Part shown: in pieces, positions 43,929-54,071 of the stretch | How the letters are laid out: the number at the start of each line of letters is the position of its first letter | How positions within the stretch are numbered: the stretch's first letter is position 1 | Sequence record: PX441839.1 | Strand: one strand, 5' to 3' | Length of the DNA stretch: 64,000 nucleotides | DNA from: a phage | The notes under the pieces: generated by a model | Database searches by the model: none | The model's input: the letters and a program-made list of their open reading frames with translations, nothing else | What the model was told of the DNA's origin: nothing | Program-made: the position numbers and the translations under genes

Positions 43929-44228
43929 TCAGTGACATTGCCCCCAATTAAGTCCTGTCAGATACTCACCTGTGATATGTACAGGTGCCTTCATCATCTT
44001 AGCTGCTTGTTCAACGCAACGAACAACCATTTCACCGACAGGGCAGTAGATGATAGTGAATATTCCATTCTCATCGGGGTCGCACTTAAACTTACCTTCC
44101 TTGACACAATGACCATCCAGAACCATACGCTTCTTGAGGCAATCCTCAACAAAAGCTTTTGCTTCGACTTCATTGTCAAACTTCCATTCCTTCTTGAACT
44201 TATTTGGAACTTCAAGCTGGTATTCATC
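43929..44228 (-). CDS. DNA polymerase family A, exon 2 (C-terminal end)
   Basis: Begins at DEYQLEVP (second half of the Pol A motif C, HDE...E.P) and ends ...TGLNWGQCH, like the Pol I C-terminus; the leading Met of the track ORF is probably intron-derived. Confidence 0.6.
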   Translation of the reverse strand, partial: DEYQLEVPNKFKKEWKFDNEVEAKAFVEDCLKKRMVLDGHCVKEGKFKCDPDENGIFTIIYCPVGEMVVRCVEQAAKMMKAPVHITGEYLTGLNWGQCH

Positions 44229-44998
44229 CAAAGTTTAGCAGGTTCGTTAATCCTGCCCACACCATTACGTGTTGCCATACGGTTTCCCGTAGGATCGGAC
44301 TATATCACCACCCTTTTCAGGGTGCTCCCCATTTCGACGCCACTTGGTCGCCTACGCCTCTCGGCTAGTCTCTGAACGTTAAGACCACGTATACTTCTCG
44401 GAAATATGCTTCCACTGCCGACGCTGCTTAATGGCTCGTACTGTTGCATAGGGGAATCCCATGTCGCGTACCTCTGCCTGGCTCATTCCGCTTTCAAGAA
44501 GCTGGCAAATGGTCATCACTTCGTCTTCTGTGAGGGCACTATTAGCATTGTTGATACCTTCCGCGCTGCGACAGTTGTGGCGATAGGCGTTCTCTATGTT
44601 TTTGCCTCTCGTAACCCACTGTAGGTTGTCTTTGTGGTTATTCCTTTTATCGGGCCACTTGTGATCAACCTCTGGAAGATTGTTCGGATTGGGAACAAAA
44701 CATTCTGCCACCAAAACATGGACCGCCTTTGTCGTCGCCTTTTTGTTAAGGTAAAGACTGACAATTGCATACCCTCTTCCATTATCAACATGCTTCATAG
44801 GTTTACCTCGACGACCTATAATGGTCCCGTCCTCGTAAACTTTATATCCGAAATAGTCTTTGTACTCCACGTAGTCCTCTTCGCTGCTGATTAACATAGC
44901 TGCACTTTAGTTTATTATTAACCCAGTGTCAACCTTAGCCTTCCAGCAATTAAAGGAGTTTTCGATGTAGGTTGCCCTACAAAGCCACAATGTTACTT
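44229..44998 (-). mobile_element. group I-like intron in the DNA polymerase gene, carrying an HNH homing endonuclease ORF
   Basis: About 770 nt separate the exon 1 end (...VRRIIYYH) from exon 2 (DEYQLEVP), splitting motif C. It contains an HNH ORF and an 80-nt core conserved with the second intron. Boundaries approximate. Confidence 0.55.
44379..44897 (-). CDS. HNH homing endonuclease
   Basis: 172 aa; HVLVAECFVPNPNNLPEVDHKWPDKRNNHKDNLQWVTRGKN is an HNH-type motif; lies between the polymerase fragments. Confidence 0.75.
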   Translation of the reverse strand: MLISSEEDYVEYKDYFGYKVYEDGTIIGRRGKPMKHVDNGRGYAIVSLYLNKKATTKAVHVLVAECFVPNPNNLPEVDHKWPDKRNNHKDNLQWVTRGKNIENAYRHNCRSAEGINNANSALTEDEVMTICQLLESGMSQAEVRDMGFPYATVRAIKQRRQWKHISEKYTWS

Positions 44999-47326
44999 AT
45001 GGTAATAGATAATACGACGAACTCCCTCGTCATACCATCCCTTCTTGACCAGTTGCCAGTGAAGCAAGATTCCAACCAGGTCAAATAGTGCTGCACCACC
45101 ATTCTGCTGAAATGCGTTCAACAGGGAGTGCTTTGAACGAGTCCAAATCTTACGCCCATCCAAACCATAGATGAATCTTTTCCCTGTCGCTTCCCAGAAT
45201 TTCTCCAGCGCTTCTTTACGACCTTTTAATCCGATGTTGCTATCCCAGAATGCGTTGATTACATCCTGTGCCTTATCTACTGTGATTCCAAGCATGGATG
45301 CAATCTTGGGTGCCTGAGCGCCGTACATGATTCCATACGTGATACTCTTTCCCTCGCCACGAGAAACCTTCTTCCCCGCTGCCTTTGTGTATGCCTCTGC
45401 GTTTCGGGTGTGGGCGTCCCCCGACTCCATGATTTCAAGGTAAGCGCCACCATCGAACTCATACGCACCCCAAGCCGCAATCATACCTTCCAGGTTAGAA
45501 CCATCAATACCCACTTGGTACTTACCCTTTGGTGCTCGCCAAAGGGAACGCATCTCATAACCAAACAACACCTTCGGATCAGGCTTAGGCATGTTTGCGC
45601 AGATCGTGTGCTTACGACGCCCAGTGTTGGTAATCCCTGAGAACCTTGCTGGTAATCGACCATCAATCTTCAAGCGTGGGTGGTTAAGAAGTCCAGTATC
45701 AACCTTATCCTCTTTCAGTGGATCAAGGACAGATCGTCGGTTACGTGCAGATAACCACTGAACAATGCCTTTAGCCATCGCACCATCCACCTTTTCCAAG
45801 TTTGGGCACAATCCCTGCTGGTCTTTCAACTGAGGGCTTGTTGGCAATGCACGGGCCTTCTTACGGAAGAATTTGAACATCTTCTCCTTGTCTGCCCACT
45901 GCTTAGGGGTAATGTGCAAGTTCTTAAGGATAAGATCACGATATTCTGTCTGATCTAGTTGCTCAATATACTCCCGCACAATTGCATCAACTTCACCATC
46001 CGGACGTTGCTTTTTAAACTGGTCCTTTGTTGCATCCTTTGTACGCCAAATTGTTGGAATCCAACCCGCATCTCGGATGAGGAACTTCTTAACATCATCC
46101 TGGTTACCGATACGCATCGGAATCATTATATCTGGCATGGTCTTATTCTTCAAGTCCGCCAAAGCCCGTGCCATATCCTCTGGAGGTAGTGGCTCCAGTG
46201 TGGATTGTTTTTCGTTCTGACTACGAATGAACTGAGGCATTTGATCCTCATCTTCCACCCCGTGGTCATTACAGTATTTAATAGCCGCAGCCGTAAGTGA
46301 ACCATCTGCCTTAAATGCTTTAGCCGGAGGCCCCTTGAAATCAAGGGCTTCCCAATTAATATTGTATCCTAACTTCTCCAGCCATTTCCAACCTGTGCCG
46401 GACAATGTCCCGTCACCCTTGAAAGGTTTGGATGGGAAAGTTGGTTGTGCGGATTTAGCCATCTCTTTCTTCGGAAGCTGAGGCTCAACCTCTTCCTCAA
46501 TCTTCTTCATGAAGGCATCAACCGTATCGCGGAGTTTCAGCGCCGCCTCTATGTCAAAATCAACACCTTGGATTTCTTGCTCAATCATCAGGTAATCGGT
46601 AAGCATACCTCGACGAAGAGAGTCTTTCCAGTTGATCATTTTATATTTTGTTGGGACACGCTCATCTTTAAACATGAAGCGTTTATCATCTGGGTACGCA
46701 TCGCAGGTGATTTCCTTCATAAGGGCGTCCCACACCTTTTCGTTGATGATAACGTCCTCAATGATACGGTCACAATACTTCCACAACGGGAGTCCACGCC
46801 AATCATCAATGGCGACTTTCAGGTTGGCTACTCTCATACCCCATGCTTCCAGACCATGAGGGCCAACAGGTTTCATCTTTCCTGTGACAGGGTTTTTAAC
46901 CATTTCTGGGCAACCCTTCGGCAATGGGCGGTCAGGGTAGAGTGTACGAGACATAGACAAGGAGTCAAACAGGTTAACCTGTTTTCCATTGATCGTTCCC
47001 ATGCACTTAGGATCGGCAAACATATCGTATTGTGTACCGAACAGCTTCTTGAACAGACGTAAGTCATATCCAAACAAGTTGTGAATAACAATGCTACTAG
47101 GGACTTCTGTGAACCATCTATTAAGGTCAGAGAAGTTCATTACATGCAGATTGAATCCCTTCGCATTAACGAAGTTCAAAGCCTCTTGATAACCCTCTCG
47201 CGCTGGGTCCATGAAGAGATACCAGTTATCCTTTTTGTACTCCTTGAAGAGGATGCAGTGAGCATGTAAGTTCTCCTCGTCAAGTAAACCAGATGCTTCC
47301 GCATCACCTACCCATAAACCTTTCAT
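44999..47326 (-). CDS. DNA polymerase family A, exon 1 (3-5 exonuclease and polymerase domains through the start of motif C)
   Basis: Motif A-like DGSNLEGM (D.S..E), motif B-like KSITYGIMYGA (K...YG..YG), N-terminal exonuclease-like region; ORF ends abruptly at ...VRRIIYYH-K-stop inside motif C. Confidence 0.8.
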
Positions 47327-51214: not shown

Positions 51215-51700
51215 TTAGAAAGGTGGTTGGTCATCCCAATCACTGTCGTCTTCCACAACCTCAGGTGTGACTTTAGATTCTTCCGGTTTGGAATCCTCTT
51301 TAATCTCCATCTGCTGTGGTTCAATGTCATCTTCATCATCAGGGATATCGTCTTCCTTGAGATCAGATAGACCTTTCTCCGAGTTCTCTTGTGATAATGG
51401 CTGCATTTTACCAACAGCCTTCTCAACATAATGTTCAGAACTTGGATCATCTTCTGGATGAATCGCATACCACTCTCGAAGAGTTTCATATGGACTGTCC
51501 AAGAAGCCTTCTGGCGGTTCTAAGTAATCACCTGTGTCAATATCATAGAACACAGGGAACTTCCCGCTACGCCCGTGCTTACGGTCATCTAGAATTACAA
51601 ACCAAGAGGTATTTCGCTCTTTCATTGGCAACTCTGGATCTTTGTTACGCTCAATACCCACCATAAAATAAGTGTTCTTTTTGTCCAGTGGGTTCGCTAC
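51215..51700 (-). CDS. primase-helicase, exon 2 (helicase C-terminus with acidic tail)
   Basis: FMVGIERN ... GRSGKFPVFYDIDTGDYLE and acidic C-terminus ending DWDDQPPF resemble the T7 gp4 C-terminal region (from memory); exon start approximate. Confidence 0.55.
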   Translation of the reverse strand, partial: VANPLDKKNTYFMVGIERNKDPELPMKERNTSWFVILDDRKHGRSGKFPVFYDIDTGDYLEPPEGFLDSPYETLREWYAIHPEDDPSSEHYVEKAVGKMQPLSQENSEKGLSDLKEDDIPDDEDDIEPQQMEIKEDSKPEESKVTPEVVEDDSDWDDQPPF

Positions 51701-52532
51701 TCCCACCCGGTGCGATTCCTGGCACCCGCCTACACTTTCGTGCAGGAACAGACTATATCATCACCTTTCGGTGCTCTCCGCTTCGGGACCGCTTGGCCCT
51801 AACGCCTTTCGGCTAGTCGTTGAGGTTTTTGCACGTTCTGGGTACATCTTCCAAGAATACAAGTCCCCGACCTCTTTCCAATCCCTTCGGGAGCGGATAT
51901 TGAGGACTGCTGACCTTGTTACAGGTAATCCACTATTATCGACAATCTTCTGCGCTGACCAACCCTCAGAAAGAAGCCTACAAATTTTGTGAACCTCTGC
52001 CTCTGTGACTTTGGACCTGTAATGATCCTCTCCCCTCTTTGGAAGCTTATTGGCAATAGAGTGCTCAAGATTTTGCCTACCAGTGACCCATTCCAGGTCA
52101 TCTTTGTGGTTAAATTCCTTGCCTCTTTTATGATTAACTTCGGGTAAGTTCAGCGGGTTTGGAATATAAGTCTTAGCTACCAACCTGTGAACATACTCGG
52201 GCGTTCTCTTACCTTTAAGTATCACATTGACAAAATAATACCCTGTACTCTTGTTTCGAATGTTCTTCAAAAATTTATTTGTGAACAAACTAAATACCTT
52301 GCCATCTTCTGTTACAAGATATTTACTACCCTCTTCTATTGGTATCATGTTTCCCCCTTCTTTATTCTAACAAAAGGGTATAATACACAAAAGAATTTGA
52401 ATATGCAACTTACCTGCTGATTACCCAATCCTCTGTCTTTTCAAACATTCACGCCCACCCTTACGGGTCACGTTGTAGTGCCAGAGGCTCTAAGGGCTTC
52501 CCAGCAATTCAAAGAGTTTTACATGCGCTAAA
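51701..52532 (-). mobile_element. group I-like intron in the primase-helicase gene, carrying an HNH homing endonuclease ORF
   Basis: Separates helicase motif H4 (...GSRAMMR) from its continuation; contains an HNH ORF and a core segment homologous to 44300-44380. Confidence 0.55.
51761..52348 (-). CDS. HNH homing endonuclease
   Basis: HRLVAKTYIPNPLNLPEVNHKRGKEFNHKDDLEWVTGRQN, paralogous to the 44379 HNH; the C-terminal tail of the track ORF probably reads through intron RNA core. Confidence 0.65.
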   Translation of the reverse strand: MIPIEEGSKYLVTEDGKVFSLFTNKFLKNIRNKSTGYYFVNVILKGKRTPEYVHRLVAKTYIPNPLNLPEVNHKRGKEFNHKDDLEWVTGRQNLEHSIANKLPKRGEDHYRSKVTEAEVHKICRLLSEGWSAQKIVDNSGLPVTRSAVLNIRSRRDWKEVGDLYSWKMYPERAKTSTTSRKALGPSGPEAESTER

Positions 52533-54071
52533 TCAACGCATCATCGCACGAGAACCTGCAAACTGTGCCGACTGAACCTGACCACCAAATTCATGGGGTT
52601 TTCCAGATTCCGGTTTGTTCAAGTGACAGAAACAATAATATGTGAAACCTAAGTCCTTTGCAAGGATAGAGATCTCATCTGAAAATCGTTCCAGTTCTGT
52701 GTTAGCATCACCTGGTGACATACCTTGCACAAGTCGAGTAATTGGGTCGATAATAATATCTTCACAACCCTCCACCAAGACTGCGTGGCGGATTGCACCC
52801 TTCACCTCGTCCCATACTGCACGACCATAGTTGGAATAATAAATGATCTTATCGCCAACATAATCTGTAGCTTGGATTAGTTCTTCATGCTTGAAGTATC
52901 CACGTTGTCCTTCAAAGATTTCGTTACCCCAAACATCTCGGTAAGTCCCATCTTCCTGAGGGATCATTACCTTTTCTGCGTTAATGAAGTCCTTGTGGTA
53001 AATTTTACCTGCAACCTTCTTACAAGTGATGTCGTTCTCTTCTTCAAACTTAAAGATACCGACTTTCTTCTTGTCTTTTTCAATGATGTGCTCGACAAGT
53101 TGGTTAACAAACTCGGACTTACCGATCTTAACACCTGCACCAAGGAAGTATCCCTCTCCTTTACGACGACCCAGTGTCAACTTGGTCATGGTAGGCCAAG
53201 GCCATGATTTACCAAGTTTTGGAATCTCGTGCGCTTTGTCTCGAAATTGTGCATACGTAGAGAAACCTTCTGGTACATAGTCCTTTGGCTTCATTGCTGC
53301 CCAGAATAATTGGTCAGCCATTCCCTTGATGTACATGTCGCATGGGTCCATGTCCTCTGGGATGTCAACAACCTTCATCTGAGGAATTACTGAGTAAACC
53401 GCTGCAACAGCATCCTTACCTTTCATAATCCCCTTGGCCTTTTCTGCCTCCGTTGCACGATCAGCATCAAAAGCTACAATAATCTCTTCAAACTTGTTCA
53501 GAAGCTTGTAGTTGTTCTTCTGAGCTAGGTTCTGCACGGCATTAGATGTGCCGTTGGAAATTGAGACCACCGTGAAGTTTGGTTTACGTGCATTTCCATC
53601 CTTAGATTTATACTTTTCTCGGAGAACCTGCCACAACACTGCCGCATCGTACTCGCCCTCCGTGATAAAAATCATGCGACGTGAGGATTTATTTGCACCC
53701 TCCAGACCAAACAGGTCACAAGCGACAGATTGGAAACCAATCGTACTAAAGTGGCCCTTCTGTTGCTTAGGAATGGTCAGATCTCGCTTCTTAAAGCCGA
53801 CGATCTTACCCTCCAGTGTGTAGGGAAAATAGTGCGCCTCTGGTGTCATCCCATCCTTGGCAGACAGCTTAGTCCTGATTCCAAAGCGCTCTGCCGTCTT
53901 CTGATCGATACCTCGCTCAGGGATGGCTTTAAATGGGTAAGTTTTTACATCTTCTACTGTTTCTTCAACCTTGTTCATACGACCACCCCCTACTGAACGA
54001 GATACCGATGCCTTCGGGTTCTTGTACCCCGTCTTATAACCACCAAACAGACCTTCACCTAATGTGCTCAC
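52533..54071 (-). CDS. primase-helicase (T7 gp4-like), exon 1
   Basis: GTG start with AAGGAG RBS; TOPRIM-like ITEGEYDA; helicase Walker A GAGVKIGKSEF; DIIIDPITRL; ends within the H4-like region. Confidence 0.75.
   Translation of the reverse strand: MSTLGEGLFGGYKTGYKNPKASVSRSVGGGRMNKVEETVEDVKTYPFKAIPERGIDQKTAERFGIRTKLSAKDGMTPEAHYFPYTLEGKIVGFKKRDLTIPKQQKGHFSTIGFQSVACDLFGLEGANKSSRRMIFITEGEYDAAVLWQVLREKYKSKDGNARKPNFTVVSISNGTSNAVQNLAQKNNYKLLNKFEEIIVAFDADRATEAEKAKGIMKGKDAVAAVYSVIPQMKVVDIPEDMDPCDMYIKGMADQLFWAAMKPKDYVPEGFSTYAQFRDKAHEIPKLGKSWPWPTMTKLTLGRRKGEGYFLGAGVKIGKSEFVNQLVEHIIEKDKKKVGIFKFEEENDITCKKVAGKIYHKDFINAEKVMIPQEDGTYRDVWGNEIFEGQRGYFKHEELIQATDYVGDKIIYYSNYGRAVWDEVKGAIRHAVLVEGCEDIIIDPITRLVQGMSPGDANTELERFSDEISILAKDLGFTYYCFCHLNKPESGKPHEFGGQVQSAQFAGSRAMMR

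Follow-up and report, generated by a model that had tools for sequence, protein, structure and literature searches.

Two related group I introns of subgroup IA2 that carry HNH genes in the DNA polymerase and primase-helicase genes of a Vequintavirinae phage

The window analysed here is a 64-kb stretch of Vequintavirinae (rV5-like) myophage DNA, and the genes of the intron-bearing region lie on its minus strand. In this region, the reading frame of a DNA polymerase gene stops at 44993 and picks up again in an ORF at 43929–44231, and the frame of a helicase gene stops at 52533 and picks up again in an ORF at 51215–51706. The ORF list places an HNH-like ORF in each of these two gaps. The closest relative was Salmonella phage SSBI34 of the Vequintavirinae, which aligned in three pieces to 79% of a 12-kb query at 84.8% identity and whose genes for 'DNA polymerase I' and 'replicative helicase, DnaB family' are continuous and include neither insertion. 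The original prediction that two replication genes had been invaded by introns is supported at both sites.

The intron boundaries were set by a BlastN search of the window flanks against the intron-less polymerase and helicase genes of SSBI34. The flanks were 94–98% identical to SSBI34 and abutted exactly at U44999/G44228 and U52536/A51676, and removal of the introns restored the reading frame (YYH|DEY in the polymerase and AMMR|NTY in the helicase). Intron 1, which was also recognised by Rfam RF00028, is 770 nt long (44998–44229, minus strand) and interrupts a family A DNA polymerase gene. The last nucleotide of exon 1 is U44999, and the first of exon 2 is G44228 (...RRIIYYH|DEYQLEV), within an HDE motif that we take to be motif C of family A polymerases. 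Intron 2, which RF00028 also matched but below its gathering score, is 859 nt long (52535–51677, minus strand) and interrupts a T7 gp4-like primase-helicase gene between U52536 and A51676 (...FAGSRAMMR|NTYFMVGIERN); this stretch may correspond to GSGALRQLSDTIIALERN of T7 gp4 (helicase motif H4). The coordinates first proposed for intron 1 (44229–44998) were exact, but those for intron 2 (51701–52532) missed its 5′ end by 3 nt and its 3′ end by 24 nt. Both introns have an in-frame stop codon at or near their start (AAG UAA in intron 1, UGA in intron 2), and both end with a G (44229 and 51677, respectively).

The starting point of this study was a nucleotide block of about 80 nt that was said to be clearly homologous between the two insertions, and the plus-strand strings quoted for it were found at 44298–44370 and 51751–51818. 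On the minus strand, the stretches from J6/7 to the 3′ strand of P7 (44376–44298 and 51824–51751) were identical at 61 of 80 positions, while nucleotide identity between the two HNH ORFs was only 54%. When the two 91-nt segments originally delimited were aligned globally, they gave 69 identities in 97 columns, with a score of 33 versus −10.4 ± 4.5 for 1000 shuffles (z ~9.6). On the structural alignment described below, the same segment was identical at 57 of 72 positions (79%), and it also formed a dense block of identity in a MAFFT alignment of both introns. Furthermore, a motif-chain regular expression and an nhmmer profile of the 3′ domain found exactly these two sites in the 64 kb (E = 9e-35 and 2e-31), and an Rfam scan of the whole window by E-value threshold returned two group I matches only, introns 1 and 2. 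Thus, the likeness of the segments is real and far above chance. However, the homology is wider than the proposed block, and it extends to P3-P4 at the 5′ end (19 of 22 positions identical), to P9 and P9.2, and to the HNH proteins (40% identity).

Motif parsing and pair counts, together with a minimum-energy fold that gave the same hairpins, placed the core of intron 1 at 44298–44376 (minus strand, as are all features below). It consists of J6/7 (44371–44376), the 5′ strand of P7 (44366–44370), P7.1 (44356–44365), GUA (44353–44355), P7.2 (44336–44352), J7.2/3 (44331–44335), the 3′ strand of P3 (44325–44330), P8 (44309–44324), J8/7 (44303–44308), and the 3′ strand of P7 (44298–44302); the two hairpins and their linker read GCCGAGAGGC-GUA-GGCGACCAAGUGGCGUC. 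The 3′ peripheral domain (44229–44293) includes P9 (44275–44293, GAAA loop), P9.1 (44259–44272), P9.2 (44238–44256, loop AUUAACGAA), and the tail UAAACUUUG that runs to the terminal G. In the 5′ half (44882–45002), P1 pairs the exon sequence CCAU (44999–45002) and AA (44997–44998) with the guide UUGUGG (44985–44990), so that the splice-site U44999 forms a U·G pair. P1 is followed by P2 (44967–44980, GUAGG-GCAA-CCUAC), the 5′ strands of P3 (44953–44958) and P4 (44943–44949), P5/L5 (44894–44942), the 3′ strand of P4 (44884–44890), and the 5′ strand of P6 (44882–44883). Rfam placed the 5′ strand of P7 at an AGACUA inside the ORF (~44840); this placement was rejected, as intron 2 and the ORF-less relatives give 44366–44370. 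With the latter position, the ORF lies in loop L6a.

The core of intron 2, obtained in the same way (motif parse, pair counts, minimum-energy fold), lies at 51751–51824. It includes J6/7 (51819–51824), the 5′ strand of P7 (51814–51818), P7.1 (51804–51813), the linker GUUA (51800–51803), P7.2 (51786–51799), J7.2/3 (51780–51785), the 3′ strand of P3 (51774–51779), P8 (51762–51773), J8/7 (51756–51761), and the 3′ strand of P7 (51751–51755). The 3′ peripheral domain (51677–51746) holds P9 (51729–51746, GAAA loop), P9.1 (51709–51726), P9.2 (51688–51706, loop AGUAGCGAA), and the tail UGGACAAAAAG to the terminal G at 51677. In the 5′ half (52412–52541), the exon AUGCGU (52536–52541) and U52535 pair with AGCGCAU (52523–52529) as P1, in which the splice-site U52536 again forms a U·G pair. 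P2 is absent, and the 5′ strands of P3 (52511–52516) and P4 (52501–52507), P5 with a long extension (52423–52497), the 3′ strand of P4 (52414–52420), and the 5′ strand of P6 (52412–52413) follow.

To anchor the structure, 22 related introns were parsed; they were taken from 16 phage records, with Twort in addition. From 5′ to 3′, the order in all of them is AA, the 3′ strand of P6 (2 nt), J6/7 (6 nt), the 5′ strand of P7 (GACUA), the P7.1 hairpin, GUA, the P7.2 hairpin (AAGY loop), GAA plus 2 nt, the 3′ strand of P3 (6 nt), the P8 hairpin, J8/7 (6 nt), the 3′ strand of P7 (UAGUC), P9 (GNRA loop), a variable P9.1, and P9.2 (loop containing UA(A/G)CG). Introns 2 and 3 of Twort orf142 and a further 19 phage introns share the order AA-P6′-J6/7-GACUA-P7.1-GUA-P7.2-GAA-P3′-P8-J8/7-UAGUC-P9-P9.2. 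Both the Twort sequence and the family parse place P7.1 and P7.2 between P7 and P3′, not between P3′ and P8. In a description of a phage polymerase intron, subgroup IA2 is marked by P7.1 and P7.2 joined by G-U-A (PMC3428280). Intron 1 has exactly P7.1-GUA-P7.2, and intron 2 has both hairpins, with a GUUA linker that is one U longer than the canonical one. In addition, the base of P7.2 in intron 2 contains an A×C mismatch or an extra C. P2 is present in intron 1 and absent in intron 2; the Pf-WMP3 intron, which was assigned to IA2, also lacks P2 (PMC3428280), and thus the missing P2 is not decisive for the assignment. It is therefore essentially right to regard the shared segment as J6/7-P7-P7.1-GUA-P7.2-P3′-P8-J8/7-P7′ of group I introns that belong to subgroup IA2. 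This segment is only the 3′ half of the ribozyme, and it needs the 5′ half because one strand of P3 lies in each.

Among the closest known systems are the IA2 introns of the Staphylococcus phage Twort. Compared with our introns, Twort orf142 has the identical order and nearly the same motifs, with J6/7 ending in CAAC, P7 GACUA/UAGUC, P7.1, GUA, P7.2 with an AAGU loop, GAA, P3′, P8, J8/7 GUGAUA, P9 with a GAAA loop, and a P9.2-type hairpin with the loop AGUAACGAA; its segment is 77% identical to that of intron 1. The differences are that orf142-I2 has no ORF, that its host gene is structural, that P9.1 is absent or short, and that the phage family and the host phylum are others. Landthaler and Shub reportedly found in 1999 that the Twort orf142 introns self-splice, and Golden et al. 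are said to have solved the crystal structure of the Twort I2 ribozyme in 2005 (PDB 1Y0Q).

A structural alignment was needed to examine the pairing across the family. Plain MAFFT of whole introns 1 and 2 misaligned the 5′ cores, because the lengths of P2 and P5 differ. MAFFT and RNAalifold on 18 unpadded 3′ domains recovered P7, P8, and P9.2, but P7.1, P7.2, and P9 were scrambled, and an alignment of seven sequences did no better for P9. Since MAFFT could not keep the hairpins in register, an alignment was built by hand around the anchor motifs, with stems anchored at the base and loops padded with N, and MAFFT returned it ungapped. The tested structure comprised P3, P4, P6, P7, P7.1, P7.2, P8, P9, and P9.2 (50 pairs in 22 introns). 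Finally, we found that 98.3% of 999 cells held canonical pairs, compared with 72.4 ± 1.0% after shuffling (0 of 500 shuffles reached the observed value) and 38–44% when the partners were slid by 1–3 columns, and that 37 of the 50 pairs changed on both sides. P3 was 100% paired with five of six pairs covarying, and P7 was 100% paired; P7, P7.1, P7.2, P8, and P9.2 had been placed by position only, but the strands of P3, P4, and P9 were picked partly for pairing ability, so that their pair statistics lean toward the model. Within the window, all 47 pairs of intron 1 and all 44 of intron 2 were canonical. Between the two introns there were eight compensatory double changes (C-G to U-A in P3, both P6 pairs, one pair in P7.2, two in P9, and two in P9.2) and no disruption; P4 was identical, and the columns invariant in the 22-intron alignment were all kept in both. 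These results agree with the proposal of a shared catalytic RNA core.

Intron 1 scored 54.0 bits against RF00028 (gathering score 50). RF00028 was also the best-scoring family for intron 2, at 23.8 bits, which is below the gathering score (E = 0.0013 in 1.2 kb and 0.071 in 64 kb); this match holds long insertions, namely the ORF and the P5 extension, and the ORF-less KP2025 intron, of the same architecture as intron 2, scored 61.6 bits. In addition, minimum-energy folds of sub-domains gave P1, P2, P4-P6/P6a, P7-P8, P9, P9.1, and P9.2, in line with the suggestion that the regions fold as an intron core.

Each intron carries an ORF for a putative HNH homing endonuclease in loop L6a, at 44379–44897 in intron 1 (minus strand; 172 aa from the ATG) and at 51761–52348 in intron 2 (minus strand; 195 aa). 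The loop is closed by P6a, which pairs 44869–44879 with 44381–44390 in intron 1 and 52399–52408 with 51829–51838 in intron 2. The two proteins are 40% identical over 159 aa (E = 2e-31), including the DH..N..N region. The intron 1 protein matched I-HmuI, an intron-encoded nicking endonuclease (1U3E, E = 5e-9), and scored 22.5 bits against Pfam HNH_3, just below the cutoff of 24.8, while a Pfam search of the intron 2 protein gave no match. The HNH protein of the CR9 intron is 93% identical to that of ORF 1, and the one of the W70 helicase intron is 67% identical to that of ORF 2. The core had been placed just 3′ of each HNH ORF. This is correct for intron 1, whose stop codon (44379–44381) lies in the 3′ strand of P6 ahead of J6/7, but not for intron 2, in which the last ~28 codons cross P6a′, P7, P7.1, P7.2, and P3′ to a UGA (51761–51763) in P8. 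Overlap of an ORF with core helices is known from other phage introns (PMC3428280; PMC3984707).

The read-through in intron 2 is what could be said for a coding or DNA-level origin of the conservation, such as an HNH C-terminal tail or an endonuclease or recombination site. However, the ORF of intron 1 ends before J6/7, stop codons occur in all three minus-strand frames of the segment, and the segment is kept in introns without an ORF (VLCpiM5b, K470, KP2025, and G2285). Furthermore, substitutions in the stems compensate each other, both from one copy to the other and throughout the family, and RNA pairing alone explains this. Conservation at the RNA level is thus accepted here, and we consider the coding or DNA-level alternative to have practically no chance of being right.

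Some sequence features may bear on the expression of the endonuclease. The first ATG of ORF 1 lies in P5/J5/4, and hence translation from it crosses the 3′ strand of P4 and P6. An alternative start, GUG at 44873–44875, stands four nucleotides behind GAAGAGGA and matches the position of the AUG start used in the K54 homologue; it may be the real start. Meanwhile, a sigma-70-like promoter sequence (TTGACA-17 nt-TAAAGT, 10 of 12 matches) was found in L5 of intron 1 at 44904–44932 (minus strand), just upstream of the HNH ORF. CR9, K54B, and PVP-SE1 have similar sequences at the same place (TTGATA/TTGACA, a spacer of 15–17 nt, and TAATAT/TAAAAT/TATACT), and a promoter is annotated there in the PVP-SE1 record. 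This element probably drives expression of the endonuclease independently of the host gene. A promoter scan upstream of the intron 2 ORF gave no clear promoter.

Two further features concern possible tertiary or splice-site contacts. The P5 strands of intron 1 at 44933–44940 and 44896–44903 (minus strand) read GCUAAG...CUAUGC, like the 11-nt GAAA-tetraloop receptor (CCUAAG...UAUGG), and the same sequence occurs in the polymerase-site relatives. Together with the GAAA loop L9 (~44282–44285), this receptor-like P5 suggests a possible L9-P5 tertiary contact. In addition, J7/9 of intron 1 (44292–44296) is complementary to the terminal G and the start of exon 2 (44226–44229; AUCC with G|GAU), and J7/9 of intron 2 (51746–51750) likewise to 51673–51677 (UGUUC with G|AACA). 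W70b retains this complementarity with one G·U, and the conventional P10 of intron 2 is weak. Several other members of the family do not have the complementarity, so that it may be due to chance or be a lineage-specific help in the choice of the 3′ splice site.

Based on the above structures, we propose the following mechanism. In the pre-mRNA, P7 of the segment, which binds the guanosine, would enclose P8 and the two IA2-specific hairpins, P7.1 and P7.2. The GGGGAG of the segment (GGAGAG in the other copy) would form P3 with a strand from the 5′ half and, with P4-P6, build the ribozyme. In P1, a U·G wobble would mark the 5′ splice site for attack by an external guanosine; the terminal G would then take the same site, and ligation of the exons would restore the HDE motif of the polymerase and the helicase motif. 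The I-HmuI-like HNH proteins encoded in L6a would nick or cut intron-less alleles in co-infecting phages, and repair would copy the intron in (homing). We infer that both introns self-splice and home; judged from their sequences, they look like intact mobile group I introns with HNH genes.

A different reading is that these are non-splicing endonuclease cassettes, in which the polymerase and the helicase are each made as two polypeptides (compare the nrdA/mobE split of Aeh1) and the core is a decaying relic. In favour of this reading, one intron-like HNH insertion did not splice in the study of Certrevirus CB7 (PMC7344957), and intron 2 falls under the Rfam gathering score. However, both polymerase introns of CB7 splice in vivo, as shown by RT-PCR and sequencing (PMC7344957), and we found one of them to be 92% identical to intron 1 in the ribozyme parts. 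Here, all modelled helices are intact in both introns, the family-invariant columns are all kept, and the splice-site U·G pair and the terminal G are in place. Moreover, the second polymerase exon (100 aa) starts inside the catalytic HDE motif, which makes a working split enzyme unlikely. We therefore regard the relic reading as highly improbable. The interpretation of the segments as the 3′ core halves of two IA2 group I introns, with the ribozyme and HNH homing model as a whole, is one that we hold with high confidence.

BLAST searches with the cores found related introns in Vequintavirinae, T7-like, T4-like, and jumbo phages, Pakpunavirus, Zobellviridae, and Staphylococcus phages, and most of them were recognised by Rfam. 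Those of CR9, phiTE, CB7, and rV5-like, T7-like, and T4-like phages include introns in polymerase genes. The polymerase introns of Vequintavirinae (CR9, PBES 02, phiTE, CB7, SSE121, K54, rV5/FV3, and PVP-SE1) share the site (YYH|DE) and the ribozyme of intron 1, with 81–93% identity in the core and 55–93% in the HNH protein; for CR9, PBES 02, and SSE121, the identity over the whole intron is 75–85%. Salmonella phage PVP-SE1 (locus L007, 999–1925) has the ribozyme and the site of intron 1 with a LAGLIDADG gene in the P7.1 loop instead of an HNH gene in L6a, and it looks as if one ribozyme had been invaded independently by different endonuclease genes. The polymerase introns of VLCpiM5b and Vibrio K470 differ from intron 1 in having no ORF. 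In Pectobacterium phage phiTE (locus L008, 953–1645), P1, P2, and the 3′ core are of the intron 1 type, and the long P5 extension is of the intron 2 type; this mosaic suggests possible recombination between intron lineages. Other related systems are SPO1/SP82 (I-HmuI/I-HmuII) and the T7-like phages PhiI/W31 and Pf-WMP3, which likewise have IA2 introns with nicking HNH enzymes in phage family A polymerase genes, and the likeness to I-HmuI is at the protein level; their polymerase insertion sites and hosts differ from those of intron 1. The ORF of the Pf-WMP3 intron overlaps P6a to P7.2, as in intron 2, and that intron starts with a stop codon (PMC3428280). The rV5 paper discusses terminase introns only. 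It is also worth mentioning that about 15 GenBank 'Campylobacter phage' records (MG0656xx, 58–143 kb) carry polymerase-intron cores at the identity of E. coli rV5-like phages (76.0% for C9, same query region), and their host labels look doubtful.

For intron 2, the closest relative is an unannotated helicase intron of Escherichia phage W70 (OP778610; locus L001, 2501–3290), which shares the codon AMMR|NTY, the lack of P2, and the P5 extension, is 96% identical in the segment and 67% in the HNH protein, and differs in a canonical GUA linker and a 6-bp P7.2. The primase-helicase gene of W70 (locus L001) has a second, ORF-less intron at Walker A (1576–1841, Rfam 70.4 bits), of a kind not present in the window, and the record lists its exons as CDSs of their own, named 'hypothetical protein' and 'DNA primase/helicase'. 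In the marine Zobellviridae phage KZY1-k141_1938105 (locus L013), an IA2 intron near Walker A (~1100–1640) splits the primase-helicase, and its HNH-like ORF is annotated as 'DNA primase/helicase'. The introns of W70 and KZY1 thus indicate that helicase genes are a recurrent, unremarked target. In the literature searched, whose coverage was limited so that absence is no proof, no phage primase-helicase gene was found to be described with a group I intron. In IMG/VR, an exact 28-mer from the 5′ core of intron 2 gave no match. A degenerate 3′-core pattern gave six contigs, only one of which matched the polymerase of the window (vequintavirus-like, with the polymerase split at two sites), and none of the six had an intron at the helicase site.

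The original prediction also held that the two introns belong to one family. This is true of the subgroup (IA2) and of the HNH type. Nevertheless, the two are separate site-specific lineages rather than recent copies of each other. A recent transposition between polymerase and helicase within one genome, with the shared core as a remnant of the duplication, would fit the presence of both introns 7 kb apart, the exact P4, the same HNH type, and the rank of intron 1 as the third closest core to intron 2 in the structural alignment. However, orthologues at the same sites are nearer. In that alignment, the core of the CR9 polymerase intron is 93% identical to that of intron 1 (93% in the HNH protein), and four other same-site polymerase introns reach 86–89% and FV3 81%. 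For intron 2, the W70 helicase intron, inserted at the same codon, reaches 86% (96% within the segment; 67% in the HNH protein), whereas introns 1 and 2 share just 79% in the core and 40% in the HNH protein. This 79% is not above the identity of either intron with those of Staphylococcus, Ralstonia, or marine phages; for instance, intron 1 is 77% identical to the Twort introns, about the same level. Within the segment, the introns of Ralstonia phage DU_RP_I (83%) and of polymerase site A in Klebsiella K54 (87.5%) lie closer to intron 2 than intron 1 does. The P2 and P5 architectures also differ: P5 is short in intron 1, and intron 2 has a 75-nt extension common to W70b, KP2025, SPA01, and phiTE. 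A recent copy is therefore very unlikely, and the two introns should be treated as distinct lineages.

As to the origin of the helicase-site lineage, we tentatively suggest that intron 2 and its W70 orthologue may represent an undescribed homing lineage on gp4-like primase-helicase genes, which could derive from a polymerase-type IA2 intron that switched sites, together with its HNH cassette, within Vequintavirinae; we regard this as a possibility rather than the expected outcome.

What is new here is the specific members, notably the helicase-site intron, and the corrected boundaries; the rest is textbook phage biology and poses no challenge to the understanding of group I introns. After the predicted splicing, the DNA polymerase has 876 aa and the primase-helicase 665 aa, and both are single genes and not fragments. 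Likewise, 'hypothetical' pieces in related records (W70, CR9, phiTE, and KZY1) are exons, which is chiefly of value for annotation. Being present or absent among close relatives (neither is found in SSBI34), the introns are handy for tracing recent horizontal exchange. With the helicase-site intron, one more conserved replication motif joins those listed as homing sites of phage group I introns. If the suggested site-switching is true, the mosaic introns (phiTE with its P5 extension and PVP-SE1 with LAGLIDADG in P7.1), together with the complementarity of J7/9 to the 3′ exon, would form a natural series for the acquisition of target sites by group I introns and their endonucleases.
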